A stretch of DNA of 64,000 nt, from contig JAUMXO010000001.1 of assembly GCA_030529135.1 (NCBI GenBank), positions 15,335-79,334 of the forward strand. The letters are read 5' to 3'. The notes under the pieces were generated by a model. It was not told the DNA's origin. It saw only the letters and a list, made by a program, of their open reading frames with translations, and did not search any database. How positions within the stretch are numbered: position 1 is the stretch's first letter; each line of letters begins with the position of its first letter. Origin of the DNA: Candidatus Saccharimonadota bacterium. GTDB lineage: Bacteria > Patescibacteriota > Saccharimonadia > Saccharimonadales > Saccharimonadaceae. Shown here piece after piece: positions 9,549 to 63,547 of this stretch. The translations under genes and the position numbers were made by a program.

Positions 9549-10508
9549 ATGTCTCGCCTTATCTTAGTTTATAACCCCAACTCTTCTAATTATTGTCGTG
9601 TCAAAAAAAATATTTTAGATCAAAAAACCAAATTGTTTGCTGAAAAAAATCTTACCGATTATACCATCAAAAAAATTGGTTTTGAAAATAACGTTAAAAA
9701 CCTTCAAAAAGAACTCAAAAACGGCGACATTTGTCTTTCTCTCGGTGGCGATGCCACCGCTGCTATTACTGCCAATGCCATCATGAGTTCCCAAAAAGAC
9801 GTCACTCTTGCTGTTCTCCCATATGGCAACTTCAATGACCTCGCTAGAACTTTGGGAACGATGAAGCTGGAGGATTTAAACGTTCACAAGCGGACCTCCG
9901 CGACCAACAGGGAGGGTACCGCGAGTAAACCGTTTAAGTCCGCTAGCCGTTTGTACCCTCTCGAGATTTATGTAGACGGCAAATTTTGGCGTTATGCTAC
10001 TTGTTACGTAACCATTGGTATGACCGCCGAAGCAGTTGAACTTTTTGATGAACCAAAATTTAGAAAATATATGCAAAAGGGCCACAAAAGTTCCTGGCGC
10101 TCTTATCTAGAGTTGGCCAAATGGTATTTCAAAAACCGTCGGAAGAAAGTGTTTCTTCCTGAGTTCACTATCAACAAAAATTCCACAGTCAAGAAAGCCT
10201 CTGATTATGCTGCTCTTAGTGGCAAATCCATGTGCCGTGTCATGAAGGGTGGCGACGATTGGAAAAAGCCCTATATTTTTAGGAGTGCTGCCCTAAAAAC
10301 TATCAGCTTCCCAAGACTATTTATCTTGATGGCAAAATCAATCTTGCATCGTACTCCCGGCAGCGATACGAAAGGCGATCTTCTAGAATTCAAGGAACCA
10401 GCTACCGTCGAACTTCAAGCCGAAGGCGAATATCAAACTTTTAAAAATATCAAAAAGATCAAGGTTAAGAAAGGGAATCAATGTTTGAAAGTGATAACAA
10501 AAAACTAG
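9549..10508 (+). CDS. diacylglycerol kinase family protein
   Basis: YNPNSS, LSLGGDAT, LPYGNFNDLARTLG, QAEGE motifs; carries short palindromic insert. Confidence 0.8.
   Translation: MSRLILVYNPNSSNYCRVKKNILDQKTKLFAEKNLTDYTIKKIGFENNVKNLQKELKNGDICLSLGGDATAAITANAIMSSQKDVTLAVLPYGNFNDLARTLGTMKLEDLNVHKRTSATNREGTASKPFKSASRLYPLEIYVDGKFWRYATCYVTIGMTAEAVELFDEPKFRKYMQKGHKSSWRSYLELAKWYFKNRRKKVFLPEFTINKNSTVKKASDYAALSGKSMCRVMKGGDDWKKPYIFRSAALKTISFPRLFILMAKSILHRTPGSDTKGDLLEFKEPATVELQAEGEYQTFKNIKKIKVKKGNQCLKVITKN
9872..9941 (+). repeat. short palindromic element in-frame in DAGK gene
   Basis: Imperfect arms GGATTTAAACG / CGTTTAAGTCC; inner CCTCC/GGAGG hairpin with GCGACCAACAG loop resembling GCGACRACGGGAG of other copies. 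Confidence 0.55.
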
Positions 10509-11284
10509 AACAGGTCATAACATACATGAAAACTCACTGGCCAAGTCCAGTAAAAGACGAGTGGCAAGTCAGTTTAGAAGAATACCCCAAAATTCTAAAA
10601 CAAATTGTCGCGGATTTTACTAAAGATAAGACTAAGAATAAAAATCTTATTCGCATTGCTGGTCTTTCTGGTTCCGGTAAAACTTCCCAAATTCTCCCCG
10701 CTGTAGAAAAATATTGCGAGATGAAAAATTTAAATCCAGTTCTCATCGCTGCTCGTCGTTTCGTAGATTATCATCCGTTCAGAAATGAAATTGAAATAGA
10801 ATACGGTGAAGAAAATTTACGTAAAAACACCGATGAATTTAGTACTATCATGATGTTTTTGAGTTTAAATGCTCTTACTAAAGCTGGTTATGATATTATT
10901 TTAGACGTTACATTACTAGATCCAGAGGTAGAAAATATCTTACTTGGAATGTTAAGAGAGAATAATTATCAAACTATGCTTCTAATGATCGCTACCAGCC
11001 CTACTGTTACTGAACATTTTTTGGGCGGTCGTGGTTGGCGTCATTCTAAGGCGACTGAAGCGGAATTTATTCGTGCCACTAGGGCAGCAATGGAATTCTA
11101 TGCCCAAAACTATCCAGATCTTCACACGATTCTTTGGAGCGTGTATGATCTAGATCCGATTTATAACGGAAAAATCAAGAACGCATTAGATATTTTTCAA
11201 GAATATTCAGAGAAAACCGATCTTCCTAAGTCAAACGATGACGAAAGAAGGGAAGCTAAAATTCAATTTCTTTCAAAACTTTAG
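10481..11284 (+). CDS. zeta-toxin-like P-loop kinase
   Basis: Walker A GLSGSGKT, FVDYHP, YDIILDVTL. Confidence 0.65.
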   Translation: MFESDNKKLEQVITYMKTHWPSPVKDEWQVSLEEYPKILKQIVADFTKDKTKNKNLIRIAGLSGSGKTSQILPAVEKYCEMKNLNPVLIAARRFVDYHPFRNEIEIEYGEENLRKNTDEFSTIMMFLSLNALTKAGYDIILDVTLLDPEVENILLGMLRENNYQTMLLMIATSPTVTEHFLGGRGWRHSKATEAEFIRATRAAMEFYAQNYPDLHTILWSVYDLDPIYNGKIKNALDIFQEYSEKTDLPKSNDDERREAKIQFLSKL

Positions 11285-11822
11285 CAGTTGCCTCTTCCAA
11301 TTCTTCAATCGTACCATTATTTAATACGTAATAATCTGCCGCTGCGATTGGCCCACCTTTTTCTAGATTTTCGATTTCAGACCGATCGCGTTCTCGAATT
11401 GCTGCTGCATCAAAGGCCCTACCCGGTCTCACTGCCACCCTATCATAACGTAAATTTTTATCTACCACCACTGCTAGAAAAGTCAAAGCCTTTGGGAATT
11501 CGTGTTTTAAAGTGCAATATTCCGTCCAAGAATAGACCCCGTCAAGCACAATTCTCTTTTGTCCAGCAGCAATCAAATCTTTCGTCTCGGCAATCACTTG
11601 TCTTACTACCCAATCCTTGCCTTCCTTTTCACGGATTTCCTCACGGAATTTTTTCTCACTCTCGCCATCTTCGGTACGTTCAATCCCTCGTTTCTCCATC
11701 TCTTTATAAATCATCCCACCAAAATATACTTTCGGATAGCCTTTGGAAGTTAAATAATCCACGATTACCGATTTGCCACTCCCACTCATTCCCACAATTG
11801 CTAGTATTTTTACATTATCCAT
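11256..11822 (-). CDS. P-loop nucleotide kinase, dephospho-CoA kinase-like
   Basis: IVGMSGSGKS, IVLDGVYS, RDRSEIE, ADYYVLNNG; start ATG 11822 behind TGGTATACT. Confidence 0.75.
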   Translation of the reverse strand: MDNVKILAIVGMSGSGKSVIVDYLTSKGYPKVYFGGMIYKEMEKRGIERTEDGESEKKFREEIREKEGKDWVVRQVIAETKDLIAAGQKRIVLDGVYSWTEYCTLKHEFPKALTFLAVVVDKNLRYDRVAVRPGRAFDAAAIRERDRSEIENLEKGGPIAAADYYVLNNGTIEELEEATAKVLKEIEF

Positions 11823-11835
11823 AAGATAAGTATAC

Positions 11836-11958
11836 CACAAAAGCTAAATCTCGGGACATCAAGCAAAAAATCTTTGATTTTTTGCGCGCGGAGGTGTAGT
11901 GTCGTGATATAATCGAAGATTGATCACGACACGAAACTCCTGAGATTTAGCTTTTGTG
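11836..11958 (+). repeat. intergenic palindromic element (21-bp arms, two inner hairpins)
   Basis: Arms 11836-11856 / 11938-11958 (20/21); hairpins 11863-11885 and 11899-11932 with c-GAA-g loop. Confidence 0.8.
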
Positions 11959-11971
11959 ATATAATATACCT

Positions 11972-12784
11972 ATGCGTAATTTTTTTACGACCAAGGATCC
12001 GCTTGATCAAATTATCACGGACACTATGCCAGATAAGAAAATCGAAAAAACTGAGCATATCTTAACTGGCTGGACGAATATTGTTATAGAAGTGACTACT
12101 GATAAAGGTTCGTACTTTTTCCGTTTTCCGAGAAACCCATTTTGGTCGCGTATGATTGTCAAAGACGCCGCCGTTTGTAATTTTGTAGAAGGGAAGACCA
12201 GCTACTATACTCCACAAATGGAGCTGCATTACGACAAACACAAACGTCCGTTTTCTGTACACAAAAAAATCGAAGGCTATACTTTAGGCGATCGCATCTA
12301 TCATCTAAGTCATACTGCGCTTACTGGCGTAGCTTATGATACTGCCAAATTTATCAAAGAACTTTCCGGTATTGATCTTCGTGGCGCACCCAAAGAGGTT
12401 CAGATGCCTCTCTCCGAATTTCTGTATGAGCTAGATCACGAGCATTACAAAAAACATATCGACAAAGACCATGATTATATCAAAAAGACCGAAGAAAACA
12501 AATTGGTTCATGGCGACCTCAATCTCGGCAATATTTTATTAGATGAAAACGATAAAGTTATTGGCGTGATTGATTTTTGTTTTGCTGGTACTGGTAATCC
12601 CCAGATGGATACTGCCAGAATGTTGTCTCGCCCCGTCCCTGAAGGATTTGAAGAAATTTTCCTTTCTCAATTCGTTGATACTTCTGAGGTAGACAGAATG
12701 AAAACCGCCTGGAAACATATCGATGCCGGCTACGCCGAACACATCCGCAGCAATTTCCCCGAAATCAACCTCAATCAGCTCTAG
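11972..12784 (+). CDS. aminoglycoside phosphotransferase / choline kinase family protein
   Basis: FFRFP, HGDLNLGNILL, GVIDF motifs. Confidence 0.82.
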   Translation: MRNFFTTKDPLDQIITDTMPDKKIEKTEHILTGWTNIVIEVTTDKGSYFFRFPRNPFWSRMIVKDAAVCNFVEGKTSYYTPQMELHYDKHKRPFSVHKKIEGYTLGDRIYHLSHTALTGVAYDTAKFIKELSGIDLRGAPKEVQMPLSEFLYELDHEHYKKHIDKDHDYIKKTEENKLVHGDLNLGNILLDENDKVIGVIDFCFAGTGNPQMDTARMLSRPVPEGFEEIFLSQFVDTSEVDRMKTAWKHIDAGYAEHIRSNFPEINLNQL

Positions 12785-13884: not shown

Positions 13885-14077
13885 GTCCAAACTATAATTT
13901 AACGCAACAGAAAACAGCAGAATATATCTGTTGTCTATAGTGCTTAGAATCGGGCGCTGTAGGCAATAGGCACTATGTTCTGTTGTATAAGTAGTTTGGA
14001 CGCTATCTACAGCGTCCGATTTTGGTTTTGTAGTATGCGTCCATTTTGCACCTTTCTGTTGCGAGAAAGCAACAGAA
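13885..14077 (+). promoter_or_regulatory. highly structured leader upstream of methyltransferase (candidate cis-regulatory RNA)
   Basis: Nested and mutually exclusive helices; 9-bp hairpin ending 1 nt before ATG 14079. Confidence 0.55.
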
Positions 14078-16424: not shown

Positions 16425-18860
16425 ATGAACCGGCTAGTTTTAATTGATGGAAAATCTGTCTTTTACCGTGGCTATTATGCCATGGGAGCCTTGAGCCTCC
16501 CAGATGGCACACCAACCGGTGGCATCTATGGCTTTGCCGCCATCGCTATGGAAATTGTTAAAAAGTTAAATCCTAGCAAAATTGTGGTGGCCTGGGATTC
16601 AAAAACTTCCACCGCTAAGAGAAAAGCCATCTACGAAGACTACAAAGCTGGCCGCGTCAAACCAGGCGAAGATTTTTACACTCAAATTCCTTTGCTAAAA
16701 AGACTAATCAACGATCTTGGCTGGTCCTTTATTGAACTAGACAATTACGAGGCCGACGACATTATAGGAACTCTCTCAAAGCAAGCCGACGAAGCGAAAA
16801 ATTACGAAACTTATATCATTTCTTCTGACCTCGATATGCTCCAAATTGTAGATGAAAATACTCATATGTGGCGCATTTTAAAAGGTTTTTCTAATATTGA
16901 AAAAATCGATGTCAAAGAAATTGAAGAGAAATATGGTATCAAAAAAAATCAATTCCTAGATTTAAAAGCCTTAAAGGGCGACTCTTCGGATAATATCCCT
17001 GGCGTCCCAGGCATTGGCGAAAAAACCGCAGCCAAGCTCCTAAACGATTATGGCACCCTAGAAAATATTTATCAGAATTTAGATAAAATCACCGGCTCGA
17101 CTAAAACCAAACTCGAAGCCGGCAAAGATTCTGCCATGATGTCCAAAAAGCTCGCCGAAATTATGTTCGACGCCCCAATCAACCTAACAACCATCCCAGA
17201 CTTCGAGTTCAACAAAGACAAGGTAATTAACGGCTTAAAGAAACTCCAATTCAACTCTCTCATCCGGAAAATTGGTGGGGGGCTTGGGAATAGTGTTTCC
17301 GAGACCGTCCGCGACAACGGGAGCGGAATGAGCGAGGAGCCCCGTGACGACGGGCGCGACGAAGCGCGTCGAGAAAACACTATCCCAAGCCCTGCGAGCG
17401 GCCCGTCCCGAGAGAGCGCCATTTCAAGCTCTAACGACACAATCTTGGATTGGGACATCAAGGGCTTAATGCACGAGAAAACAGAAATTGCCAAGAAAAT
17501 AGAATCCGGTGCAAAATACTGGGATCTTGGCCAAGCCGAATTTCTATTGAACCCTCTAGACCGCGGTCAATCGGACAAATATGACCCCATGGATTTCCGG
17601 ATGGCCTACCAAGTTCAGTACAGGGAACTAACCAAGATCCCTCGCCTATATAATATATATACCGAATTCGATCTTCCTCTCATACCAGTTCTCTACAAAA
17701 TGGAGATAAAGGGTATGCTGATAGATCGCGACTATTTTGCCAAACTTCGCACAGAATATGAAGAAGAGCTTCACACCCTTGAACAAAAAATTTACACTCT
17801 CTCGGGTATAACTTTTAATATCAACTCTCCAATCCAGTTGTCTGAAGTGTTGTTTATGCATCTAGGGCTCGCTACTAAGGGAATCAAAAAGACCACGCGC
17901 GGTTACTCAACCGGTGCAAAAGAATTAGACAAGCTAAAAAACGAGCATCCAATAATTAAAGAAATTATTAAATATCGCGAGACTAGCAAGCTTTTAAATA
18001 CTTATATTATTCCGATGCCAGACCTTGCAGATGACAATGACCGTATCCACACTACCTTTACGCAAAATGTGACTTCTACTGGTAGATTGAGTAGTAAAGA
18101 TCCTAATCTTCAAAATATCCCAGTTCGAACAGAAGAAGGAAAACGAATTCGTGCTGGTTTTGTTGCGCCAAAAGGCAAAAAACTAGTCTCTGCAGATTAT
18201 TCTCAGTTTGAGCTTCGTCTTGCCGCTATCATGTCGGGCGACCAGAGTCTCATCGATGATTTTAATAACAGTATTGATATTCACACTAAAACTGCTTCCG
18301 AAGCTTTCCACACCCCAATAAACCAGGTCACCAAGAATCAACGTCGCGCTGCTAAGGCTATCAATTTTGGCATTATTTATGGCATGAGCATTAATGGCCT
18401 AGCTGAAGCCACCAAAATGAATTTTTACGACGCCAAACGGTTCATGGATAACTACCAAAAACTTCGTGCGCCTATCATGGATTTTATGAAAAAAACTTTA
18501 GAAAAGGCTCGTACTGATGGCTACGTAGAAACTTATTTTGGGCGTCGTCGCCCTACTCCGGATGTCAAATCATCTAATTTTTTGATTAGAACCGCTGCTG
18601 AGCGCGCTGCGGGGAACATGCCAATTCAGGGAACAGAAGCCGATCTGATGAAACGTGCCATGATTAATATCGATAAAAAACTTCCAAAAAATGCCAACTT
18701 AATTATGCAGGTCCACGACTCTTTGATCGTGGAATGTGACGAAAAAGACACCGACGAAATTAGCCAAATTTTAAAACAAGAAATGGAGCAAGTAGCACCA
18801 GAGCTAAAAGTTAAATTGGCCGTAGATGTTACGATAGGCGACAATTGGGGTGAACTATAA
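16425..18860 (+). CDS. polA: DNA polymerase I (with in-frame palindromic insert in the linker)
   Basis: LIDGKS, YEADDIIG, GDSSDNIPGVPGIG, SADYSQFELR, AKAINFGIIYG, QVHDSL. Confidence 0.96.
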   Translation: MNRLVLIDGKSVFYRGYYAMGALSLPDGTPTGGIYGFAAIAMEIVKKLNPSKIVVAWDSKTSTAKRKAIYEDYKAGRVKPGEDFYTQIPLLKRLINDLGWSFIELDNYEADDIIGTLSKQADEAKNYETYIISSDLDMLQIVDENTHMWRILKGFSNIEKIDVKEIEEKYGIKKNQFLDLKALKGDSSDNIPGVPGIGEKTAAKLLNDYGTLENIYQNLDKITGSTKTKLEAGKDSAMMSKKLAEIMFDAPINLTTIPDFEFNKDKVINGLKKLQFNSLIRKIGGGLGNSVSETVRDNGSGMSEEPRDDGRDEARRENTIPSPASGPSRESAISSSNDTILDWDIKGLMHEKTEIAKKIESGAKYWDLGQAEFLLNPLDRGQSDKYDPMDFRMAYQVQYRELTKIPRLYNIYTEFDLPLIPVLYKMEIKGMLIDRDYFAKLRTEYEEELHTLEQKIYTLSGITFNINSPIQLSEVLFMHLGLATKGIKKTTRGYSTGAKELDKLKNEHPIIKEIIKYRETSKLLNTYIIPMPDLADDNDRIHTTFTQNVTSTGRLSSKDPNLQNIPVRTEEGKRIRAGFVAPKGKKLVSADYSQFELRLAAIMSGDQSLIDDFNNSIDIHTKTASEAFHTPINQVTKNQRRAAKAINFGIIYGMSINGLAEATKMNFYDAKRFMDNYQKLRAPIMDFMKKTLEKARTDGYVETYFGRRRPTPDVKSSNFLIRTAAERAAGNMPIQGTEADLMKRAMINIDKKLPKNANLIMQVHDSLIVECDEKDTDEISQILKQEMEQVAPELKVKLAVDVTIGDNWGEL
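17280..17392 (+). repeat. GC-rich palindromic element, in-frame in polA
   Basis: Arms 17280-17298 / 17375-17392 (18 bp plus bulged A); core motifs shared with ileS and 29376 copies. Confidence 0.85.
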
Positions 18861-22484: not shown

Positions 22485-24488
22485 ATGCCAGACGACAATC
22501 AATCAACTACTAATTCATCTGTGTCGGACCCTAGCAATTCGGGTGCGGGCACAAGTACGGACTCCAGCGCAGATGCTATTGTAAGCGGAGCTGATTCTAA
22601 TTTTACTATTCCAAGTCTAGACGACCTCGAATATGCTACCCCCAGCGCCTATGTGGACCCAAATCTTCCACAAGCACCTGATACAAAAAACACGTCACAA
22701 GAAGAATTGGAAGAACCGCAGGGAGAAGAACCGCAGGCAACGCAAGAAGACGAGAGTGACGCCAAAATGACTCCCGAGCAAATTACCGAGGCAACCAAAA
22801 TGTCGGATGGAGTTATGGCTAAAGTTGCCGAAAAAATTGCCAGTGCCAGTAACATCTTGATTGCACTTTCTAGCGATCCGTCCATAGATGAACTTTCGGC
22901 TGCCATTGCGCTGCAACTTTTCTTAGATCGTCTAGGTAAACATGTTATTGCTATTTTTTCTGGCAGCATTCCTGAAACTATCCAATTTTTAAAACCCGAA
23001 GGCATCTTTGAGAATAGCACAGACGCTTTACAAGATTTTGTTATTTCTCTAAGTAAAGACAAAGCAGATCACCTTCGTTACAAGTTAGAGGGAGATTTTG
23101 TCAAAGTTTTCATTACGCCATATAAAAACCGTATCTCTGCTGAGGATCTTGAATTTTCCTATGGCAATTATAATGTCGATCTATGCTTAGCTATAAATGT
23201 CGATAACGGGGTAGATATAGACCCAGCGCTTCGTGATTATGGTCAAATTATACACGGTACTACTGTTATAAACATCACCACCGGTAATCCTGGCAAATTT
23301 GGTGAAATCGAATGGAGCAATCGTCGTGCTAGTTCAGTTTCTGAAATGATTGCCAATTTATTCCTAAACTCTACTGGCGAGACTAAACTAAACGAAAAAG
23401 AGTCCACTGCACTTCTCGCTGGTATTATCGCCGCCACAGATCGTTTTGCTCGTGCTAATACTTTCTCCAATACTTTAGAGACTGCCTCGCGCTTACTCGA
23501 ATTAGGCGCAGATCAACAGCTAGTAGCTGCTAATATTTCCGAAGACTTAGACAACCAATTCTTTGCTAGTTCTAAAGCTGCATCAAAAGCTAAAGAAGAC
23601 TCCGCCGCTACCACCACTAGTACCACTACTAGCCCAGATACTTCATTATCTTCACTCGAATCTTCTAAGTCAACTAAAGATGACAAGAAAGAAGTAGAAC
23701 CAGAAGAACAAACTGAAACCGAGCCTGGTATTGAGATCTCTCACGAAGAGAGCGAAGCAGAGCCCTCTGAAACTAAAACTCCAACAGAGCCTACATCTCC
23801 TGAGCCAACTCCCGCTCCAGACGAATCGTCTGCTAGCACCGGCTCAGTGAATATACCAGTGCCAGAGTCGTCGGATTTATTAAATCCAAAACCTAACATT
23901 CCAAGCTCAACTATTCCAGAATCAGAGTTAACTTCGGAACCAACCACGCCAACACCAATTATCCCAAGACCAACTGAAGATCCTGGTATGTTAGACGAAC
24001 TCAAAGCCACAGAAGCTAGTTTATCTAATGTTGGTGCTGAAACTACTATCCCAGCGCCAACTGATCAACCAATCAGCATCTCCAATAGTGGTGTCATAGA
24101 GCCTATCAACTCATTTGCCACTGGTGAACCAGCTGACGCTACTAGCAAATACGGACAGATGCTAGAAGATGCTCTCGCTGAGCCAACTACTGCTGAAGCA
24201 GCGCCTATGGCTAACGGTTTGCCACCAGTAGAAAATCCAGCCGCATCAATCGCACCAGAGGTTAGTACTACGCCCGAGACTAGCAATATGCCAGAAATAA
24301 ATTATGGCGAAAATTCTAACGATCAAATTCTCCCACCGCCGCCAGCCCCGCCGATAGACATTAATGCGCCGATGCCGATGCCAGCCCCAGTTGACCCAAA
24401 TGCTGCGCCAACATTGCCACCGATGCCAGAGCCAACCCCAGCTACCGCCCCAAACGCTCCCGATGCCTTTACTATCCCAGGTGTCTAA
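22485..24488 (+). CDS. DHH-family-like protein with degenerate motifs and long disordered acidic/Pro-rich termini
   Basis: ILIALSSDPSIDELSAA, SSVSEMI, LLAGIIAATDRF; GAAAGG RBS before ATG 22485. Confidence 0.7.
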   Translation: MPDDNQSTTNSSVSDPSNSGAGTSTDSSADAIVSGADSNFTIPSLDDLEYATPSAYVDPNLPQAPDTKNTSQEELEEPQGEEPQATQEDESDAKMTPEQITEATKMSDGVMAKVAEKIASASNILIALSSDPSIDELSAAIALQLFLDRLGKHVIAIFSGSIPETIQFLKPEGIFENSTDALQDFVISLSKDKADHLRYKLEGDFVKVFITPYKNRISAEDLEFSYGNYNVDLCLAINVDNGVDIDPALRDYGQIIHGTTVINITTGNPGKFGEIEWSNRRASSVSEMIANLFLNSTGETKLNEKESTALLAGIIAATDRFARANTFSNTLETASRLLELGADQQLVAANISEDLDNQFFASSKAASKAKEDSAATTTSTTTSPDTSLSSLESSKSTKDDKKEVEPEEQTETEPGIEISHEESEAEPSETKTPTEPTSPEPTPAPDESSASTGSVNIPVPESSDLLNPKPNIPSSTIPESELTSEPTTPTPIIPRPTEDPGMLDELKATEASLSNVGAETTIPAPTDQPISISNSGVIEPINSFATGEPADATSKYGQMLEDALAEPTTAEAAPMANGLPPVENPAASIAPEVSTTPETSNMPEINYGENSNDQILPPPPAPPIDINAPMPMPAPVDPNAAPTLPPMPEPTPATAPNAPDAFTIPGV

Positions 24489-24504
24489 AACAGGGAACAA
24501 GAAC

Positions 24505-29375: not shown

Positions 29376-29522
29376 GATTCAGAGAAGGTGCTTTCGAGAC
29401 CCTCTTGCGACGACGGGAGCAAGAAGGGCGAAGCGCTCCCCGTAACGCTCGCCCCTTGGGACGCGAATTGCCGAAGGCAAACGGGCGAGCGCAAGCGCGT
29501 CGAGAAAGCACCTCTCTGAATC
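29376..29522 (+). repeat. GC-rich palindromic element between rpsU and adk
   Basis: Arms 29376-29395 / 29504-29522 (19 bp plus bulged A); several inner hairpins incl. TTGCC-GAA-GGCAA. Confidence 0.88.
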
Positions 29523-29545
29523 CTTTTTTATGTTATAATGTAGAT

Positions 29546-37062: not shown

Positions 37063-40000
37063 ATGAAATATAGAGCGGGAGAGCGCCGAAAGGCGATAGA
37101 GTATGAAAAGGCTCTCATCGATTGGTGGAAGAAAAATAAAACTTTTGAAAAATCTATCGAAGAGCGGCCAGAAGATAAATCTTATGTTTTTTATGATGGT
37201 CCACCATTCATTACTGGCATGCCTCATCATGGAACGCTTTTGAGTTCCATTGTTAAAGATGCCGTTCCGCGTTTTTGGACTATGCGTGGTTACAGAGTAG
37301 AGAGAAGATGGGGCTGGGATTGCCACGGCCTTCCTGCTGAAAATTTTGTTGAAAAACAACTTGGTATTACTGATAGAAGAGAAATCGGCACCAAGTGGTC
37401 GCTAGAAGACTACATTACCAAAGCTCGCGAATCCATGGTTGCTAATTCTGAAGAATGGCGTAGCACCATTGATCGTTGCGGTCGGTGGGTAGATTTTGAT
37501 AACCCCTATCGTACCATGAATAAAGATTTTATGGAATCTGTCTGGTGGGCTTTCAAGAAGCTATATGATGCTGGCAAGATTTACGAAGGTCGCAAGGTCC
37601 TAATGTATGACACCAAGTTTGCCACTCCTGTTTCAAAAGCCGAAGTCACTATGGATAACGACGCCTATCAAACCGTCACTGACCCAAGTGCGTACGTTAA
37701 GTTTAAACTTAGAAATTCGGAAGATACTCTTTCGAGGAGCATATTTGGCGACGAGCCAAATACGAAGCGATTGAGCCCCGTAACGATGGGCGCGAAGGAG
37801 CGTTCCGAGAAAGACGTATCTCCGGATTTCTACTTCTTAGCTTGGACTACCACCCCTTGGACTTTGATGGCCAATCGTGCTCTTGCAATCAGCAAAAAGA
37901 TGGAATATGGTGTTTATGACATAGACGGTCAGAAACTTATCGTTGCCACTAAGCGTGCTGAACAAATTTTTGGCTCAAACCCTCCCGAAAGAGTATTAAA
38001 GGGAAAAGAGCTAGAAGGTCTAGAATATGAATCGTTAGATGGTACCAAGTGTAAAGTTTTTGCCGCAGACTTTGTAGGTGAAGAAGAGGGTACCGGCATC
38101 GTTCATGTTGCCCCAGCTTACGGCGAAGATGATTACGAATTGTTCAGAGCTCACGAAAAAGAAATTGACTTCGTGGATACTTTAGACGAAAACGGTTATT
38201 ATATAAAAGAATACGCTGACAAACTTCACAAATTAGGCGTCCGCGACACCGATGAGCATGGCATCCAAATCTGGGCCGCCAACAAATTTATTGCCAAATG
38301 CCTAGAAGAAAAAGGAATTATCTATAAAATTGAATATATTCAGCATGAATACCCATTCAACCCTAGAAGCAAAGAACGTATTATGTATCGCGCTTTCCCG
38401 TCTTGGTTCTTTGATATCGAAGGCCAAAAGCCCTTAATGCTAGCCGAAAACGAAAATATCAACTGGTTTCCAGGATATCTCAAGCACGGTCGCTTTGCCA
38501 AAAATATCGAAGCCGCACCGGACTGGAATCTCTCTCGTGATCGTTTTTGGGCTACTGCCATGCCAGTTTGGAAGGGTGACAAAGGCTCGATCAAAGTTGT
38601 AGGCTCATATAAAGAGCTAGAAGAGTTATCAGGAAAGAGACTCGAAGATTATCATCGTCCATGGGTAGACGAAATTGAATTTGATATTAAAGGCGAACAT
38701 TTTACTCGTATTGAAAAAGTGCTCGACTGCTGGTTTGAATCTGGCTCCATGCCGTTTGCTCAGCTACATTATCCATTCGAGAATAAGGAAAAATTTGAAA
38801 AAAACTATCCTGCCGATTTTATCGTAGAATATGTCGGCCAGGTTCGCGCCTGGTTCTACTACGTACATGTAGTTAATACCGCTCTTGCCGACATCGGAGC
38901 CTTCGGTGACAAGGCTAAAAACGGTCACAAAAACGCGTACAAAAATGTGATCACTACCGGTACATTAGCCGGGAACGATGGCCGCAAGATGAGTAAATCC
39001 CTTGGTAACTATACCGATCCAAACGAACTTATGGATCAATATTCTGCCGACGCTTACAGATTTTTGCTCCTCATGAGCCCGGTCATGTCTGGCGAAGATT
39101 TTGCCATGTTGGATAAGGATGTTTCCGACATTAATCGTAAACTTGCAATGCTCTGGAACGTCTACGATTTCTTTACTACTTATGCCGAAATTGAAAATCT
39201 CGGCCCGGAGGATTTTGATAAACCTATCCGACTCAAATCTCCTCTAGACAATTGGATTACCCAGCGTTTTTACCAACTTCGTGATGAAATCACTACTGGT
39301 ATGGAAGAATACAACATACCAAAGGCGCTCCAAGGTGTTCTTCCGTTTATTGACGACTTGTCCAACTGGTATGTTCGTCGTTCTCGTCGTCGTTTTTCTA
39401 AAAACGATAATCAAGAAGATAAACTCGCCGCTTTTTACACGCTTTATTCCATGCTCAAGATGACCGCTATTATCCTCGCACCATTTACCCCGTTTCTCTC
39501 AGAAGAATTGTATCAAAAAATCACTATGAAAGAAGATTCGGTTCATCTATTAGCTTGGCCAGCCGCCATTGATGACGAGTCAATCCATGATACCATTCTA
39601 TCTGACATGACTCGTACCCGCCAGATTATTACAGATGCCTTAGCTCTTAGAATGCAAAAATCCGATACCGAGGATCAAATCAAGGTTCGCCAGCCACTTG
39701 CATCGCTAGTATATGACGGTGACAAGCTAGACAATTTTTATGAGCAGATTATTAAGGACGAAGTCAACGTTAAAGAAGTCAAAAATGGCAAAGAATTAAA
39801 ACTAGACAAGACCCTCACGAAAGAATTAAGGGAAGAAGGCTATGTTCGTGATCTCATTCGTGCGGTCCAATCTGCTAGAAAACATGCCGGTCTTCAAATG
39901 GACGACCATATTAAGCTTAGTCTTTCCGTCGAGATTCCAAAAGATTACATAGAGCTTGTGAAAACCGAAGTTTTAGCAGACACGATTGATGACGGCAACT

Positions 40001-40065
40001 ACGCCCACGATGAAATTGCCAAAATAGGGAAAGATAATATAACTATCTCGTTAGAGAAAAATTAA
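37063..40065 (+). CDS. ileS: isoleucine-tRNA ligase (type 2-like) with in-frame palindromic insert
   Basis: FYDGPPFITGMPHHG, WGWDCHGLP, AWTTTPWTL, DWNLSRDRFW, KMSKS. Confidence 0.96.
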   Translation: MKYRAGERRKAIEYEKALIDWWKKNKTFEKSIEERPEDKSYVFYDGPPFITGMPHHGTLLSSIVKDAVPRFWTMRGYRVERRWGWDCHGLPAENFVEKQLGITDRREIGTKWSLEDYITKARESMVANSEEWRSTIDRCGRWVDFDNPYRTMNKDFMESVWWAFKKLYDAGKIYEGRKVLMYDTKFATPVSKAEVTMDNDAYQTVTDPSAYVKFKLRNSEDTLSRSIFGDEPNTKRLSPVTMGAKERSEKDVSPDFYFLAWTTTPWTLMANRALAISKKMEYGVYDIDGQKLIVATKRAEQIFGSNPPERVLKGKELEGLEYESLDGTKCKVFAADFVGEEEGTGIVHVAPAYGEDDYELFRAHEKEIDFVDTLDENGYYIKEYADKLHKLGVRDTDEHGIQIWAANKFIAKCLEEKGIIYKIEYIQHEYPFNPRSKERIMYRAFPSWFFDIEGQKPLMLAENENINWFPGYLKHGRFAKNIEAAPDWNLSRDRFWATAMPVWKGDKGSIKVVGSYKELEELSGKRLEDYHRPWVDEIEFDIKGEHFTRIEKVLDCWFESGSMPFAQLHYPFENKEKFEKNYPADFIVEYVGQVRAWFYYVHVVNTALADIGAFGDKAKNGHKNAYKNVITTGTLAGNDGRKMSKSLGNYTDPNELMDQYSADAYRFLLLMSPVMSGEDFAMLDKDVSDINRKLAMLWNVYDFFTTYAEIENLGPEDFDKPIRLKSPLDNWITQRFYQLRDEITTGMEEYNIPKALQGVLPFIDDLSNWYVRRSRRRFSKNDNQEDKLAAFYTLYSMLKMTAIILAPFTPFLSEELYQKITMKEDSVHLLAWPAAIDDESIHDTILSDMTRTRQIITDALALRMQKSDTEDQIKVRQPLASLVYDGDKLDNFYEQIIKDEVNVKEVKNGKELKLDKTLTKELREEGYVRDLIRAVQSARKHAGLQMDDHIKLSLSVEIPKDYIELVKTEVLADTIDDGNYAHDEIAKIGKDNITISLEKN
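37711..37831 (+). repeat. GC-rich palindromic element, in-frame in ileS
   Basis: Imperfect arms 37711-37733 / 37809-37831; TATTTGGC-GACGA-GCCAAATA hairpin; 21/23 match to polA copy core. Confidence 0.85.
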
Positions 40066-40228
40066 AGTAGTTTTTGTGAGCATAATGAGATCTAGACCAG
40101 ATTTTTGAACGTAATTTTTACGGCATAACAATGTAAAAATATTCCAGAATTATAAGAATATTTTTACTTGACTTTATGCTGTGAAAATTACAAGTTCAAA
40201 AGTCCAAGCTCACAAAAACTACTTTAAT
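40061..40228. repeat. long AT-rich imperfect hairpin after ileS
   Basis: Perfect 21-bp arms 40061-40081 / 40208-40228, second helix about 40103-40128 / 40174-40201, inner 12-bp helix 40133-40144 / 40156-40167. Confidence 0.8.
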
Positions 40229-40265
40229 TTATATCTGTTACGCAGCTATTTAACCATAAAAGGTA

Positions 40266-41266: not shown

Positions 41267-43025
41267 AAATCCAGAACTATCAAGTGGCAATCCTGGTGAG
41301 TCAAAGGAAGCTAGCAACGAGGCTATTAATAAAGAACGTGGCAATAAAGTCAATAATATTGAAGCCCTGCTCAGAAGGCGCGAAGAATTACTAAAAAGAC
41401 GAGAATATCTAGAAGGAATTATTCGTCAGCTTGATAGCGAGGTAAAATCACCAGTATCCACGTCTGAACCAACTAAAGCCGAAGCTTCGGCATCCAATAT
41501 AACATCCGTTGCGGGCGAAGCCGAATCTACTGCCGCAAAAGATGAATCATCAGAAGAAGATAAAACTTCAAAGTCAGAAACTGCCCCAACGCCAAGTAAT
41601 CTCGGCGAAAAAATTAAGAAAAAATCTGGCCTTAGGAATTTAATTACCGGCATCGCCGCTGGTCTTGCTGTTACTATTTTTGCAGGCGGGTTTATGGCTA
41701 GTTACAACAAAAATGCCAAAGCCGCCGCACTTGCTGGCGGTGGAGCCGTACCAAAAGTTGAATCAGAAGTCGCTAATGAGAACTCGGTAGAAAATACTCA
41801 GTATGCCGGCGAAACTATTAATGGCGTTAAGTATGACTATACAGAATATGCTGACCGAAAAAATAAAGTTTCATATAACGCCTATGGTTATGACTATTCC
41901 GACCAATATGATAATAGGGAGGCTGCTACCAATGGTATTATGCGCATGGCCGGAGAAGAACCAGAAGCGCTCGCTTCCTATGCATATAATATATTTACCG
42001 ATACAGAGAAGGAAGAGCTGAATATTAAAGGCTTATCCATGGTAGAGATTGATGATAAATTTAATTCAGCTGGCGGCGGTGAGCTGCAGAAGAATCTTTT
42101 GGGTAAGCTAGATCAAGTTTTGAGGAGTGAAAAAACTAATTTTAGATTTTATCACGAAAATGGCACCGAAGAAACTAATTATGTTTATTTTGTAGATAGC
42201 AATAAAGACGGTAATTATACTCCAGACGAGCTGCATCTTGGTTACGACACTAAGAAACGCAGCAACGCTCCTCAGGTAGACATTTCTCGTACTATCGAGA
42301 ACTCAGATGGTACGACTAAGACACAAAAAATGCTTGATCTTAATATGAAGTGTGGCTATCAGCCAAATTATCAGAAGGCTCCAATAGGCGTGCCGCCGAT
42401 ACCTGCCGATAAACCAGTAGCTCAAGTTATCAAGGGGGGCGGTGCTGCCCAAATTATCAAAGGTGGCGGTCCAAATACTCCGACCCCGACGCCAAAACCA
42501 GAGCCAAAACCAAAGCCAAAACCAGATCCTAAGCCAGAGAAACATATACCGAAGAATGTTGAAGCTGAAAAACAAAATGCTGGCGATCGTGTTACCCCAT
42601 TGCCAATTGATAATAAAGTCACTCCGCCAACTACCGAAGCTGAAGATCGCAAAAACTTTGATGCTATAGCCGAACAACAACGACAACAGCAAGCCGCCGC
42701 CGAACAGGCTGCCCGTGTAGCAGCTGAACAAGCCGCCGCTGAGCAGGCCGCCGCTGCCGAAGCCGCTGCTAGAGCCAAAGCCGACGAAGAAGCTGCTCAG
42801 GCTCAAGCTGCCAACGAGGCCGCTGCTAGAGCTGCAGAAGAAGCCGCTCGCGCTCAGGAAGAAGCAAATCGACAAGAAGCAGAACAACGAGCTCAAGAAG
42901 AGGCAGCTCAGCAGGCTCAGGCAGAAGCCGATGCTCAAGCTGAGCAAAACAATCAGGAAGCTGAATCACATAATGATGATAACGCTAGCGAACGTGCTGC
43001 AGACTTCAATAGTGGAGATTTCTAA
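41259..43025 (+). CDS. single-pass membrane protein with Pro-Lys linker and Ala/Glu/Gln-rich helical tail
   Basis: GGAGG RBS; TM LITGIAAGLAVTIFAGGFMA; PKPEPKPKP; AAEQ repeats. Confidence 0.8.
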   Translation: MPKNPELSSGNPGESKEASNEAINKERGNKVNNIEALLRRREELLKRREYLEGIIRQLDSEVKSPVSTSEPTKAEASASNITSVAGEAESTAAKDESSEEDKTSKSETAPTPSNLGEKIKKKSGLRNLITGIAAGLAVTIFAGGFMASYNKNAKAAALAGGGAVPKVESEVANENSVENTQYAGETINGVKYDYTEYADRKNKVSYNAYGYDYSDQYDNREAATNGIMRMAGEEPEALASYAYNIFTDTEKEELNIKGLSMVEIDDKFNSAGGGELQKNLLGKLDQVLRSEKTNFRFYHENGTEETNYVYFVDSNKDGNYTPDELHLGYDTKKRSNAPQVDISRTIENSDGTTKTQKMLDLNMKCGYQPNYQKAPIGVPPIPADKPVAQVIKGGGAAQIIKGGGPNTPTPTPKPEPKPKPKPDPKPEKHIPKNVEAEKQNAGDRVTPLPIDNKVTPPTTEAEDRKNFDAIAEQQRQQQAAAEQAARVAAEQAAAEQAAAAEAAARAKADEEAAQAQAANEAAARAAEEAARAQEEANRQEAEQRAQEEAAQQAQAEADAQAEQNNQEAESHNDDNASERAADFNSGDF

Positions 43026-46559: not shown

Positions 46560-47238
46560 AGGTTATTTCAAAATTGAGGGCGCTGTACGCGCCTTCAATT
46601 TTGATTTCAAAGACAAAGTAGTTTTAGACATTGGCTCTTCCACTGGCGGTTTTACTCAATATGCCCTAGATCACGGCGCCAAAAAAGTCTTCGCCGTAGA
46701 AAAGGGAACCAATCAAATGAAAGAACCCCTCCGTTCCAACCCACGCATCGAACTCCACGAAAAAACTGATATTTTTGATGTAGGAATACAAGATAGTTCT
46801 AACCGAGGGACTCCGGAGCGCGGCAGCGCGAGGATGAGCGCGCTGTCCCCGTGGCAGACCGCCCCTTGGGACGCGGACGACTCGAAGAGTCGACGGGCGA
46901 CGGCGACGCGGCCCGATGTAGAACTATCTTGTATTCCAGACATAATTCTAGCAGACGTTTCCTTCATTTCTCTCACCAAGCTTTTAAAATACGCCAAAGA
47001 AAATCTATCTAATAAAAACACAGATTTTTTAGTTATGTTAAAACCTCAATTTGAGGCAGAAGAAAAAGACTTACATAATGGTATCGTCAAAAACGAAACC
47101 ATCAGAAGGGATATTATTAAAAAATTTGAAAATTGGCTCAAAAACAACAATTTCGTGGTTTTAAAGAAGAAAGACAATATTATGCATGGCAAGCATGGTA
47201 ACACAGAAAGATTCTACTGGTTGAAACAATCAAAATAG
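46534..47238 (+). CDS. tlyA: TlyA-family rRNA methyltransferase (no S4 domain) with in-frame palindromic insert
   Basis: VLDIGSSTGGFT, DVSFISL, LKPQFE, GNTE. Confidence 0.85.
   Translation: MNIASVKNRGYFKIEGAVRAFNFDFKDKVVLDIGSSTGGFTQYALDHGAKKVFAVEKGTNQMKEPLRSNPRIELHEKTDIFDVGIQDSSNRGTPERGSARMSALSPWQTAPWDADDSKSRRATATRPDVELSCIPDIILADVSFISLTKLLKYAKENLSNKNTDFLVMLKPQFEAEEKDLHNGIVKNETIRRDIIKKFENWLKNNNFVVLKKKDNIMHGKHGNTERFYWLKQSK
46783..46937 (+). repeat. GC-rich palindromic element, in-frame in tlyA
   Basis: Perfect 19-bp arms 46783-46801 / 46919-46937; 16-nt identity with 29376 copy; GACTC-GAA-GAGTC hairpin. Confidence 0.9.
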
Positions 47239-60300: not shown

Positions 60301-60366
60301 TTTTTCTCCTTTATATTGGGTATATTATACCACAAATCAAAATAGGTTTTTATAGAAACGTTTTTG

Positions 60367-60777: not shown

Positions 60778-60788
60778 AACACACTCCT

Positions 60789-61415
60789 TTATTTATTATT
60801 AGTCTCTGAAAAATCGTTAAATTGAGTATAAAGATTATTCAGACTATCCTGGGATGTTGCCAAAAAGGCTTTTAGTTCTCCATCTTCAACTACGTCAGCA
60901 ATATATTTTTCATCACTCACCACGGCAGAAATTTCTAGTGCCATTTTATGCGCATAAACTCGGTCTAAAAGACCATTTATCTTTGCATCAAATAGCTCGT
61001 TGCCTAAGCGATTTTTGTTATCCTCGGCCTCTTGCATAGTAGTTTCTTTGATATGCTTATCATTAAAATCGTAAGCTTTTATTAAATAGCTATTTATCTG
61101 AGAAGAAATATTAGAGAAAAGCCCTTTTAGTGAAGAGGAAAGGGAACGTAATGATAGCGATTTTACATCGGGTTGGAAATCCGTAATTAGCTCCGTAGTG
61201 CCATCTAAATGCAGTTTTAGCTCTATACATTCTTCTTCGATAGATGGTTTTCCGCTCAACATAGAGCCAAAAAGCAAAATCACTAAAAATAGTGCTACTA
61301 CAATCCCACCCCATTTCAAATATTTCGAACTTAATATTCCTTGGAGACCTTTTTTGGGTGGTTTTACCGGCCTCGAGGCCGCTGTAATTTGATCCAAATA
61401 GTCCTGACTGTCCAT
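60789..61415 (-). CDS. single-pass membrane hypothetical protein
   Basis: 208 aa, one TM helix. Confidence 0.7.
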   Translation of the reverse strand: MDSQDYLDQITAASRPVKPPKKGLQGILSSKYLKWGGIVVALFLVILLFGSMLSGKPSIEEECIELKLHLDGTTELITDFQPDVKSLSLRSLSSSLKGLFSNISSQINSYLIKAYDFNDKHIKETTMQEAEDNKNRLGNELFDAKINGLLDRVYAHKMALEISAVVSDEKYIADVVEDGELKAFLATSQDSLNNLYTQFNDFSETNNK

Positions 61416-61436
61416 GATATAATACTATTATAACAT

Positions 61437-63095
61437 ATGTATGACGCGAAGGAGGAAATAAAATCTCGGCTTCCCGTAGAAGACGTCATCAGTCAATATG
61501 TGGAGTTGAAACGAGCTGGCCGTAATCTCAAAGGTCGTTCCCCATGGGGTGTAGATAAAACCCCTAGCTTTATGGTATCTCCAGAAAAGGGCATTTGGCA
61601 TGATTTTTCCGCTAATAAAGGTGGCGATATTTTTACTTTCGTCATGGAAGTCGAGGGCATTAGTTTTAAAGAAGCTATGGAAAAACTTGCCCGTCAGGCC
61701 GGCGTGGAGTTATCTAAATATGGTGGGTTTAATAAAGGTAGCGATCGAAGACTCGCCCAAAGAAAAGCTCGCGCTAGGGAAGCATTAGTTTTGGCTACGC
61801 GGTATTATCAGGCTTGTTTGGCGCATAGTCGCGAAGTCTGTGAATATGTTTTTTATAAGAGAAATTTAGAACGTTCCACCGTTAAAGAGTTTAAGATTGG
61901 TTACGCTCCAGAAAACGGCCATGCATTAATAGATGTACTCAAAAAACGTGATTTTACTCTAGAAGAGTTGGAATTTGCTGGGCTTCTTAATCGCTTCAAG
62001 AAAGATCTGTTCCGTCATCGCATGATGATTCCGTTTATCGATACCGATGGCTCTGTTATTGGCTATACTGCTCGCATTATCGGTAGCGGAGAGCCAAAAT
62101 ATCTCAACACTCCAGAAACGCTCTTATTTAATAAATCACGTTTTATTTTTGGGCTTTATCAAGCCAAAGAAGCTATTAGAAGAAATGGCTATGTGATTAT
62201 AGTAGAAGGGAACATGGACGTAATTTCTTCGCATCAAGCTGGCGTCAAAGAGGCTGTGGCTACTTCTGGAACGGCTATGACCGAGCAACATCTCAAAATT
62301 CTTTCTCGCCTTACCTCAGACATTCGTTTGGCTTATGATGGCGACGCTGCTGGCGTTAAGGCTACTGAGCGTGCCGTAGAGCTAGCCGGCGAGCTTGGTA
62401 TAGATTTAACAATTATTTCCAACTATCATGGCGCCAAAGACCCAGATGAACTAATTCAAAAAGACCCTGCCCTCTGGCGAGCTGCAGTTGACGAACGTAT
62501 TCCAGCGGTCGACTGGCTCCTTCAAAAGTATGCCGAATCCCTCAACCTCTCGCTTGCCCCAGACAAAAAGAAATATTCCGACATAGCGCTTCACCTCCTT
62601 TCTCTTATTAAAGACGAGATAGAACACGAAGATTACGAACAAAAAATCGCCAAGACTCTCGATGTGACTGTGGAGGCTTTAAGAGAAAAAGGCGAGCGCT
62701 TAGGCCGTCAGCTAAAAAAATCTACTACTAAAAAATACCTTAAAAAGCCTAAAACTAAGGCCCTGCCAGATCACTTGAAAAGATTAGAAGACGCCCTGCT
62801 CTCGCTCAAAATTTTTGGTGGTATCACTAAGACCGAAATTCCTCTCAAAATGCCAGAAGACGAAACTAGGCTTTCGGAGCTAGAGTTAATTTTTAACACT
62901 AGCTATGAAAATATGCCAGAAGTAGATTACGAAAAAGAGGCTGCCACACTCCTTAAGCGTTATCAGACTGAACTCAAAAAATCTGAAATTACCAATCTCC
63001 AGGATAAACTCGAAGATTTGTCCGAAGACGATCCTAGCTACCAAGAAACTCTTGCAAAACTGAATCAGCTTCTGAAATCTAAACCTCTTGAATAA
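61437..63095 (+). CDS. dnaG: DNA primase (zinc ligands absent in N-terminal domain)
   Basis: KTPSF, MIPF, PKYLNTPET, VEGNMDV, AYDGDAAG, KDPDE. Confidence 0.95.
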   Translation: MYDAKEEIKSRLPVEDVISQYVELKRAGRNLKGRSPWGVDKTPSFMVSPEKGIWHDFSANKGGDIFTFVMEVEGISFKEAMEKLARQAGVELSKYGGFNKGSDRRLAQRKARAREALVLATRYYQACLAHSREVCEYVFYKRNLERSTVKEFKIGYAPENGHALIDVLKKRDFTLEELEFAGLLNRFKKDLFRHRMMIPFIDTDGSVIGYTARIIGSGEPKYLNTPETLLFNKSRFIFGLYQAKEAIRRNGYVIIVEGNMDVISSHQAGVKEAVATSGTAMTEQHLKILSRLTSDIRLAYDGDAAGVKATERAVELAGELGIDLTIISNYHGAKDPDELIQKDPALWRAAVDERIPAVDWLLQKYAESLNLSLAPDKKKYSDIALHLLSLIKDEIEHEDYEQKIAKTLDVTVEALREKGERLGRQLKKSTTKKYLKKPKTKALPDHLKRLEDALLSLKIFGGITKTEIPLKMPEDETRLSELELIFNTSYENMPEVDYEKEAATLLKRYQTELKKSEITNLQDKLEDLSEDDPSYQETLAKLNQLLKSKPLE

Positions 63096-63140
63096 AATCC
63101 TTATCCATGCTATAATTAACAGAATAAACAAAGGATTTAT

Positions 63141-63449
63141 ATGAAGAAAGCAGTTATCCTCGTAGGCGGGAAGCAATATCTCGTCGAGGAAAAAGAGACC
63201 CTACGGGTGGACCTCCTCCCGGCAGGCACCAAAGAGCTCGAAACTGATGCTTTACTCGTGATCGATGGTGACAAAACCACCGTCGGTACTCCTACCGTAA
63301 AAGGTGTAAAAGTTTCGGCTAAGGTGAAAAACGCAGAGGTTAAAGGCGATAAGATTCGCGTAATCCGCTATCACAGCAAGAAGCGTGTTCATACCGAAAC
63401 TGGCCATCGCCAAAAATACTCTGAAATTGAGATTACCAAAATCGCTTAA
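63141..63449 (+). CDS. rplU: 50S ribosomal protein L21
   Basis: GGKQYLV, GHRQKYS. Confidence 0.95.
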   Translation: MKKAVILVGGKQYLVEEKETLRVDLLPAGTKELETDALLVIDGDKTTVGTPTVKGVKVSAKVKNAEVKGDKIRVIRYHSKKRVHTETGHRQKYSEIEITKIA

Positions 63450-63450
63450 C

Positions 63451-63547
63451 GTGGTAAGAAATTCTAAACGGGCCCTACGGACCTTAAAGACTTGGCCTGA
63501 GCGGCCCGGAGCGTGTCCGAAGGACACGCTTTAGAATTTCTTACCAC
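63451..63547 (+). repeat. palindromic element between rplU and parA
   Basis: Perfect 18-bp arms 63451-63468 / 63530-63547; CGGGCC/GGCCCG helix and AGCGTGTCC-GAA-GGACACGCT hairpin. Confidence 0.85.

Follow-up and report, generated by a model that had tools for sequence, protein, structure and literature searches.

Palindromic elements that lie in-frame within housekeeping genes are known from Rickettsia (Rickettsia palindromic elements [RPE]) (PMC10969869). Small, structured, non-autonomous repeats placed between or within genes are also known from Coxiella (QMITE), enterobacteria (ERIC/RU), and Neisseria (Correia), as portrayed in excerpts of the published accounts (PMC10969869, PMC5896051, PMC2759123), and excerpts of other reports describe GC-rich modules in mitochondria, namely, the GC clusters, double-hairpin elements, and hairpin-forming elements of yeast, Allomyces, sponges, and placozoans (PMC4478555, PMC2800124, PMC7813641). 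Here we describe GC-rich, multi-hairpin elements in a 64,000-nucleotide stretch of DNA (referred to here as the window) from a Candidatus Saccharimonadota bacterium of the candidate phyla radiation (CPR) (GenBank assembly GCA_030529135.1, contig JAUMXO010000001.1, positions 15,335 to 79,334 of the forward strand). The GC content of the window is ~41%, and the nearest genomes are ruminant-gut metagenome-assembled genomes labelled Nanosyncoccus or Nanosyncoccaceae. What non-orthologous copies of the main family share is a core of ~80 nucleotides (nt); each core is enclosed by an outer stem, ~20 bp long, whose sequence varies among copies and which, at three sites, has one arm that matches native host sequence.

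By analogy, RPE are the closest functional counterpart of these elements. As with RPE, copies are numerous (four or five in the 64-kb window and 64 in 1.7 Mb). They lie in-frame in unrelated housekeeping genes of a host-dependent bacterium with a reduced genome and appear to add a peptide to the product, judging from open reading frames (ORFs) that run through them and from inserts that are missing from solved homologues and from most orthologues. Both groups consist of short palindromic repeats of ~100 to 150 bp that fall into several families and have no coding capacity of their own (PMC10969869). By description, the elements reported here are set apart from RPE in that they belong to another phylum, only the core is conserved, the ~20-bp stem is copy specific and looks partly host derived, the peptide is not conserved (two frames are used), and strong, recurrent hot spots hold several unrelated cores. 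Within an RPE family, the whole element is generally conserved, ends included. The comparison with mitochondrial GC clusters, as far as the excerpts characterize these, is also close: both spread through genomes that are compact and AT-rich, invade coding regions, nest in one another, and have no known enzyme. The present elements are bacterial, not organellar, and we know of no host-derived clamp stem or conserved three-way-junction core in mitochondrial hairpin elements. Full-text literature searches returned no such elements in Saccharibacteria or CPR bacteria, and none of the full texts searched contains the phrase "inverted target site duplication." There is a reasonable chance that the insertion mechanism itself is new.

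Structure and reading frames of the family A core

A first-pass annotation, made by a model from the sequence, had grouped seven stem-loops into one dispersed family inserted in-frame into protein genes. We folded each as RNA and compared it with 200 dinucleotide shuffles. All seven hairpins were borne out (-29.9 to -79.1 kcal/mol; z score, -5.1 to -10.4), none of the 200 shuffles equaled the native fold, and folding was seen on both strands, as palindromes should. The four core words reported as common to several copies match exactly at their positions and occur nowhere else in the window, and the C-GAA-G triloop hairpins attributed to the plus strand of four copies are clear at 11914, 29472, 46883, and 63518. 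Membership of a single family held for four of the seven (those in polA, ileS, tlyA, and the spacer between rpsU, encoding S21, and adk) and failed for two of the other three, the third (DAGK) looking, by eye, like a reduced derivative. In-frame placement was correct for the polA, ileS, tlyA, and DAGK-family kinase ORFs, whereas the copy at 29376 to 29522 is intergenic, and the stem length, given as 11 to 23 bp, had to be revised to 17 to 22 bp.

The four related copies, starting at 17280, 37711, 29376, and 46783, align with invariant CGAG, CCCCGT, GGGCG, and GCG...CGA blocks and constitute what we call family A. The unit common to the copies is a GC-rich core of ~80 nt, 5'-TTC GAG ... C GAG AA-3'. 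The parts of the family A structure are an outer stem (P1), a pyrimidine/purine closing helix (TTTC/GAAA), a tandem G.A internal loop (C-GA-G ... C-GA-G), a helix P2, and a three-way junction. The junction carries two hairpins, P3 with the loop GCGACRACGGGAGC and P4, in which CCCCGT and ACGGGCG enclose either a loop or extra hairpins. A covariance model (CM R1) was built from 15 copies. In a scan of the window together with genomic loci from relatives (L001 and so on; 1.71 Mb with the window), CM R1 found 64 family A copies. In a search of Rfam 15, only two tRNAs reached the gathering score, and the elements were unmatched even at an E value of ≤10, including by introns, ribozymes, and riboswitches.

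Paired cells made up 90.5% of the 64-copy alignment, compared with 64% when columns were shuffled and 38 to 46% when pairing partners were slid. Double-sided changes occurred in 35 of the 38 pairs, inner helices P2 to P4 included (for example, GC in 35 copies and AU in 22, GC in 35 and CG in 21, or CG in 25 and UA in 23). These figures lean towards structure because the alignment was fitted to the model; the margin is large all the same. On the modelled strand, G.T mismatches outnumbered A.C mismatches by 123 to 54. This hints that it is the modelled strand that folds, as RNA or as single-stranded DNA, and a mutation bias could give the same asymmetry.

Approximately 38 of the 64 copies lie in the sense orientation within an ORF, ~5 lie antisense within an ORF, and ~21 are intergenic (orthologues counted). 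The third sense frame of the canonical core contains TAA or TGA (CCG TRA CG). Both of the two usable frames are used, giving core peptides of the form ...SEEPRNDGRDEA... or ...SPVTTGA..., and the peptide is not conserved. The use of both frames argues that it is the nucleic acid, not the peptide, that is kept. Genic copies are spanned by one open frame in nearly every case, with frame 3 avoided. We rejected the proposition that none of the three sense frames is ever closed: one or two open frames are typical.

The RNA runs that were searched with 10 kb of the window did not contain it. With a consensus-like copy as the query, two metatranscriptome-type runs contained the core, and a 215-nt metatranscriptome contig continues from coding sequence of ileS across the 5' arm and on into the core. 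No joints skipping an element were found in the contigs of these two runs. The contigs are weakly consistent with retention of the element in mRNA, since DNA may have been carried over and rare forms are lost from contigs. The nearly constant open frame is the stronger argument and, at the level of sequence, argues that genic copies are translated.

All four family A copies of the window are on the plus strand. The polA copy (17280 to 17392; 5' arm, 17280 to 17298; core, 17299 to 17374; 3' arm, 17375 to 17392) scored 118.3 bits with CM R1 (E value, 1e-31), compared with 8.8 bits for the minus strand. It lies in-frame in the linker that joins the 5'-3' exonuclease domain to the polymerase domain. 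The polA ORF (16425 to 18860) is open through the element, and in a Pfam scan that covered seven window proteins and confirmed the host genes, the domains stop at amino acid (aa) 255 and resume at aa 436. The ileS copy (37711 to 37831; 5' arm, 37711 to 37732; core, 37733 to 37810; 3' arm, 37811 to 37831; 93.2 bits) occupies a hot spot at aa ~215, immediately N-terminal to the WTTTPWT editing motif of isoleucyl-tRNA synthetase (IleRS). The alignment with the type 2 IleRS of PDB entry 8c8u splits at the element, with aa 221 to 255 standing opposite one residue.

The other two copies are large variants with extra hairpins inside P4. The tlyA copy (46783 to 46937; 29.5 bits) is in-frame, and its 5' arm (46783 to 46801) is an exact inverted copy of its 3' arm (46919 to 46937). 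TlyA is an FtsJ-type methyltransferase, and the Pfam FtsJ match spans 224 residues for 178 profile positions. The copy in the rpsU-adk spacer (29376 to 29522; 75 bits; two extra hairpins) begins 3 nt past the S21 stop codon and is followed by CTTTTTTATGTTATAAT (CTTTTTT). This copy is open in one frame, hence an apparent ORF (29405 to 29542) that gives adk a false 46-aa N-terminal extension; we rejected the start at 29405 as an artifact. Spurious antisense ORFs also lie over the polA copy (17072 to 17494, minus strand, 140 aa) and the tlyA copy (46713 to 47021, minus strand, 102 aa).

Copy-specific stems and native arms

The length of the outer stem has a single mode, with a median of 20 bp and most values between 14 and 31 bp; the control median was 0. 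Similarity between non-orthologous copies ends at TTC|GAG on one side and GAGAA| on the other. Thus, the copy at L014:10659 (ileS aa 215) and that at L011:5510 (ileS aa 721 of a different species) are identical over 80 of 80 nt of core and have unrelated arms, and copies in L097, L089, and L087 behave likewise. Two copies in L006 have a private P3 stem in common and different arms. Across 52 non-orthologous pairs with cores ≥90% identical, arms were 40% identical, compared with 26% for random sequence. Orthologous arms at ileS aa 215 (window, L004, L014, and L020) were ~75 to 85% alike and no more diverged than the surrounding gene. With orthologous arms diverging no more than the gene, fast evolution of terminal repeats does not by itself account for the arms. 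A family consensus initially seen in the arms was rejected; it came from orthologous copies at ileS aa 215 and was largely gone with independent copies.

At three sites, one of the two arms is native. In tlyA, TTGTATTCC (xCIP), which makes up the outer 9 nt of the 3' arm, matches the native TTTGCACTCC of L102, and the 5' arm, which is the exact complement, is a net addition. At ileS aa 215, it is the 5' arm, AGAAATTCGGA, that matches the native AAAGATTCGGA of L012 and the residues K-N-R-D of PDB 8c8u, and the 3' arm, CCGGATTTCT, is the copy. At ileS aa 721, the 5' arm consists of the conserved DSE[ED][LF]EN codons; the empty L005 site reads ...GAGCTCGAAAATACT, and the filled L015 site has the same sequence plus the 3' arm AGTATTTTGAGCTC. 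Either arm can thus be the native one.

The tlyA copy carries a further trace at its boundary. A direct repeat, GATGTAG, occurs at 46777 to 46783 and again at 46915 to 46921, at the junction of the core and the 3' arm, where the consensus is CGAGAAAG. The 3' end of this core is chimeric, CCCGA|TGTAG in place of the consensus CCCGAGAAAG. Exactly 138 nt of the element are missing in L001, whose IleRS is 96% identical to that of the window, and in a sheep-gut metagenome contig; in the contig, the joint runs from 46776 to 46915, and 7 letters fit either side. From the sequence, we infer that the chimeric end and the GATGTAG repeat are the expected trace of a microhomology jump.

Turnover, hot spots, and other elements

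The length of IleRS varies from 947 to 1,065 aa among 120 proteins 76 to 96% identical to that of the window, owing to inserts at ≥5 sites (aa ~215, 305, 365, 541, and 720), and 83 genomic loci had the same insert pattern. The site at aa ~215 was filled in 19 of the 83 loci and empty in 63, and that at aa ~721 was filled in 20. Cores of several unrelated families can lie at a single ileS site, where family A is present in either orientation, with antisense copies at the same sites in L077, L037, and L046. Hence, these sites have been invaded many times.

TlyA shows a comparable range of states. The native loop DIFD-F[VI]C[TK]P-D (186 aa) is present in 59 of 120 homologues; the others carry scars or arms-only hairpins (187 to 202 aa; for example, EVGIASIPTP in L103) or full elements (210 to 237 aa). 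An exact-protein lookup returned no record of the window TlyA. In one homologue, P0212 (234 aa), part of the VILAD...VADVSFISL segment is present again after the element, as might result from recombination of two alleles within the insert. In gut metagenomes, the depth of core k-mers was tens to hundreds of times that of the flanks, and assemblies break there. No empty alleles of the polA, DAGK, and 11836 sites were found among metagenome contigs, in which assemblies break at repeats. GTDB representatives were ≤90% identical, so that junctions were not resolvable at the nucleotide level, and in the best strain pair, L105 and L106 (95% identical), the differences exceed the insertion alone. Viral contigs gave two matches, each covering just the 21-nt P4 hairpin, and thus no evidence for a phage vector. 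We conclude that the elements are gained and lost fast, leaving arms-only hairpins and short scars. The earlier proposal of an undescribed, dispersed, non-autonomous structured element in CPR bacteria that adds ~23 to 50 aa to core enzymes is supported: more copies were found, the segments are missing from most orthologues, and no Rfam family matches. Its link to HUH enzymes acting on single-stranded DNA gained no support in the fraction of any genome that was searched, and a special role for the GAA triloops would be speculative. It had overlooked the host-derived look of the copy-specific stems and the several unrelated core families at the same sites.

Four or more additional, unrelated families of hairpin cores are found at ileS aa ~215 or ~721 (in L010, L015, L025, L032, L034, L037, L066, L071, and others), with peptides ...SAGASSHFDNGHGR..., ...GGPEPGKAR..TPVATGV..., ...ALLxRRTSSTARSATP..., and ...SKHFASP..RRGDKSSRV.... 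A further family, GACGGGTGAC...GGGGGACCCCC...GGACCCGTC (peptide, ...HGRVTALEGDPR...RQDPS...), has a constant, element-borne terminal stem, unlike family A. It occurs in ileS at aa ~365 (L010, L011, and L012), ~309 (L011, L014, and L024), and ~541 (L010, L026, and L080). The site at aa ~541 also holds AT-richer inserts of 18 to 22 aa, AYVxNGxV...AHV (20 to 22 aa) or A[YC]VxxGxV...[AT]H[VT] (L027, L030, L041, and L070), which look like decayed, domesticated copies of the GACGGGTGAC family. If they are, the elements become ordinary protein loops.

The three remaining stem-loops of the window are not members of family A as CM R1 defines it. The element in the DAGK-family kinase gene (9872 to 9941, plus strand; z score, -5.1) is in-frame and consists of a 13- to 14-bp stem around one hairpin. 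It fell below detection by CM R1. In a by-eye comparison, its loop, GCGACCAACAGGGAG, is the P3 loop of family A, within the motif GCGAC-AAC-GGGAG (CCTCCGCGACCAACAGGGAGG), and the element looks like a reduced family A derivative. The Pfam DAGK_cat match halts at aa 106, right before the insert. Directly downstream of this gene, and overlapping it, is an ORF for a Zeta-toxin-family kinase (10481 to 11284; PF06414; E value, 1.4e-15). The element after rplU, encoding L21 (63451 to 63547, plus strand; z score, -10.1), begins 2 nt past the stop codon, is followed by TTGTTTTTG, and represents a family B. Its core also lies in-frame in ileS of L071 and L009 and at two sites in L014; blastn identities were 93% over 56 nt at L071:10677-10732 (ileS aa ~215), 88% and 90% in L014, and 78% in L009. 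The third, a multi-hairpin palindrome at 11836 to 11958 (z score, -10.4), is intergenic, unassigned to family or strand, and had no similar sequence in the 1.7 Mb of relatives.

Two other GC-rich stretches, 42659 to 42869 and 24316 to 24496, were rejected as elements. They are low-complexity coding sequence with GC peaks to 72%, encoding the Ala/Glu/Gln-rich and Pro-rich tails of a pair of large proteins that look secreted. Three long, AT-rich palindromes between genes (40053 to 40236, 13898 to 14068, and 7034 to 7311; arms, 26 to 36 nt) bear no relation to the GC-rich families; that at 40053 to 40236 is 96.7% conserved in L001.

Origin of the outer stem and meaning of the inserts

On balance, we lean toward the reading that these are selfish, non-autonomous elements of which the core spreads, the outer stem being built by inverted duplication of target DNA. 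The stem would not be carried by the element and would form at or soon after insertion, when ~10 to 20 nt of adjacent target are copied in inverted orientation. The simplest route would be copy-choice DNA synthesis. A nascent strand would jump, via a few bases of microhomology, to a donor core (DNA or RNA) and copy it; the stable core would then fold, and the 3' end would snap back and copy the nascent flank; finally, synthesis by a polymerase or a reverse transcriptase would resume on the original template. We infer the time of stem making, the template switch, and the enzyme. Copies persist only where they are harmless, either in-frame in tolerant, presumably surface, loops or a few nucleotides past a stop codon, and some would decay to ordinary protein loops. 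A bolder form of this reading, which we offer only tentatively, is that the core is a new kind of mobile unit without terminal repeats, which makes its ~20-bp clamp from the target by snap-back synthesis, possibly from an RNA copy cut from host transcripts at that stem.

Several observations weigh against a stem copied from the target. In some arms, the inner ~10 bp (ATAGTNTTTC) are found again at non-orthologous sites, and 5' arms follow a pattern, A-rich at -14 to -11 with a pyrimidine tract at -6 to -1, in which A at -11 is found in 43 of 58 copies, non-orthologous copies too. On account of this recurrence and this pattern, part of the arm may be element borne, or may reflect a target preference or the codon usage of acidic loops. 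At tlyA, the L001 allele exceeds the commonest native form by 6 nt and, for that reason, may be the footprint of a repeat-mediated deletion and not a virgin site. Gene conversion confined to the core could also yield identical cores in different stems, and the L006 pair looks so. Among the alleles compared, none equals the immediate-ancestor form before insertion, and no insertion was caught happening; no mobilizing gene was identified, the ORFs of the loci not having been scanned for transposases. Finally, ileS aa 721 and the rpsU-adk spacer already have a short inverted repeat of natural origin or a terminator hairpin, so that insertion into hairpins is a live alternative at these two sites.

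This last point leads to the alternative that survives best, in which cores are dropped into, or exchanged by gene conversion within, pre-existing hairpins, and nothing is duplicated at insertion. Intergenic copies begin a few to ~30 nt past a stop codon, frequently in antisense orientation to the gene upstream, and in several of them, the stem is flanked by A-runs and T-runs. A stable hairpin after a stop codon followed by a T-run is found only with gene-end copies, to judge by sequence (29376 to 29522 and 63451 to 63547, and similarly in L029 and L045). Ten relatives have an ordinary terminator hairpin with a T-run at the rpsU-adk position, and an eleventh, L002, has only a 20-nt spacer there; the window copy at 29376 keeps the downstream TTTTTTATGTTATAAT, which is the same in L015. 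Such flanks, together with the arms-only hairpins at ileS aa 215 of L013 and in tlyA of L103, the orthologous arms that enclose different core subfamilies in tlyA of the window and L002, the private P3 stem shared in L006, and the natural GGATTT...AAATCC complementarity at ileS aa 721, speak for insertion into, or exchange within, hairpins. However, native tlyA (L102 and L001) and native ileS aa 215 (L003, L007, and L106) have no inverted repeat anywhere near 20 bp, so that the first arrival at a site still requires stem making. As a general explanation, we regard this alternative as unlikely.

Also improbable, in our view, is a functional RNA, either an intron-like insert that is excised (for example, by RNase III cutting and ligation) or a cis-regulatory or terminator module that benefits the host. 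RNase III needs a stem of about 20 bp, and the outer stem suits it; long and perfectly paired, this stem looks like a substrate of RNase III, as in RNase III-processed rRNA intervening sequences. The gene-end copies, which stand in for an intrinsic terminator hairpin and precede a T-run, recall pneumococcal SPRITE. Covariation in all helices, the conserved loops, and the excess of G.T over A.C mismatches also fit a functional RNA. In contrast to SPRITE and the rRNA intervening sequences, most copies are inside protein-coding sequence and in frame. The open frame over nearly every genic copy and the avoidance of frame 3 would be needless if the RNA were removed and thus count against excision. 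Presence is patchy among near-identical strains, no ribozyme or intron model matched, and the metatranscriptome contig that joins ileS to the core without a skip points, weakly, the same way, given possible DNA carry-over.

An ordinary MITE (miniature inverted-repeat transposable element), that is, an entire hairpin whose arms are terminal inverted repeats, moved in trans by a transposase from another locus and quickly diverging with compensation, would account for the small size, palindromic ends, high copy number, and lack of a coding gene, and for orthologous arms that covary at ileS aa 215 (window, L004, L014, and L020). The elements do resemble the in-frame bacterial MITEs (QMITE, ERIC/RU, and Correia) in being small, structured, non-autonomous, and both inter- and intragenic. 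What defines MITEs is terminal inverted repeats of constant sequence together with a direct duplication of the target site. Here, past ~3 to 6 nt from the core, arms of non-orthologous copies are 34 to 40% identical, compared with 26% for random sequence, even where cores are 90 to 100% identical, and, across species, the evolution of orthologous arms is no faster than that of the host gene. The core is flanked by inverted complements, and the whole element lacks a flanking direct repeat; the GATGTAG repeat of tlyA brackets only one arm and the core. No insertion sequence with matching ends was noticed in the examined part of the 1.7 Mb, where loci ORFs were not scanned for transposases. We consider an ordinary MITE quite improbable. 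A single-strand DNA element for an HUH enzyme (an IS200/IS605-derived PATE or a REP/RAYT-like element) would suit the very stable hairpins, C-GAA-G triloops included, and the strand-asymmetric wobble pairs, but is very improbable, since the stem differs per copy and leaves no constant hairpin for an enzyme to recognize outside the core (core hairpins are constant, the flanking stem variable), no constant target tetranucleotide was seen apart from the TTC of the element itself, the majority of copies lie within genes, both orientations occur at one site, and no HUH gene was seen in the window and gene neighborhoods, where no dedicated search was made and seven window proteins were Pfam scanned.

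The genomes of Saccharibacteria and CPR bacteria are tiny and nearly every gene is needed, yet the essential enzymes IleRS, DNA polymerase I, and an rRNA methyltransferase tolerate and rapidly exchange inserts of 25 to 50 aa. The elements account for much of the odd length variation among near-identical CPR proteins. They mislead gene callers, through false N-terminal extensions and antisense ORFs, and break metagenome assemblies. The inserts are a natural map of insertion-tolerant loops, and the conserved, covarying three-way junction is a candidate ligand for a protein. If the host-derived stem reflects the chemistry of insertion, it would represent a mobility mechanism without precedent in the literature searched. 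Were the core indeed a mobile unit that makes its own clamp, an inverted rather than a direct target duplication would be a signature of transposition undescribed for bacterial elements, and the inserts would steadily supply CPR bacteria with new protein loops.

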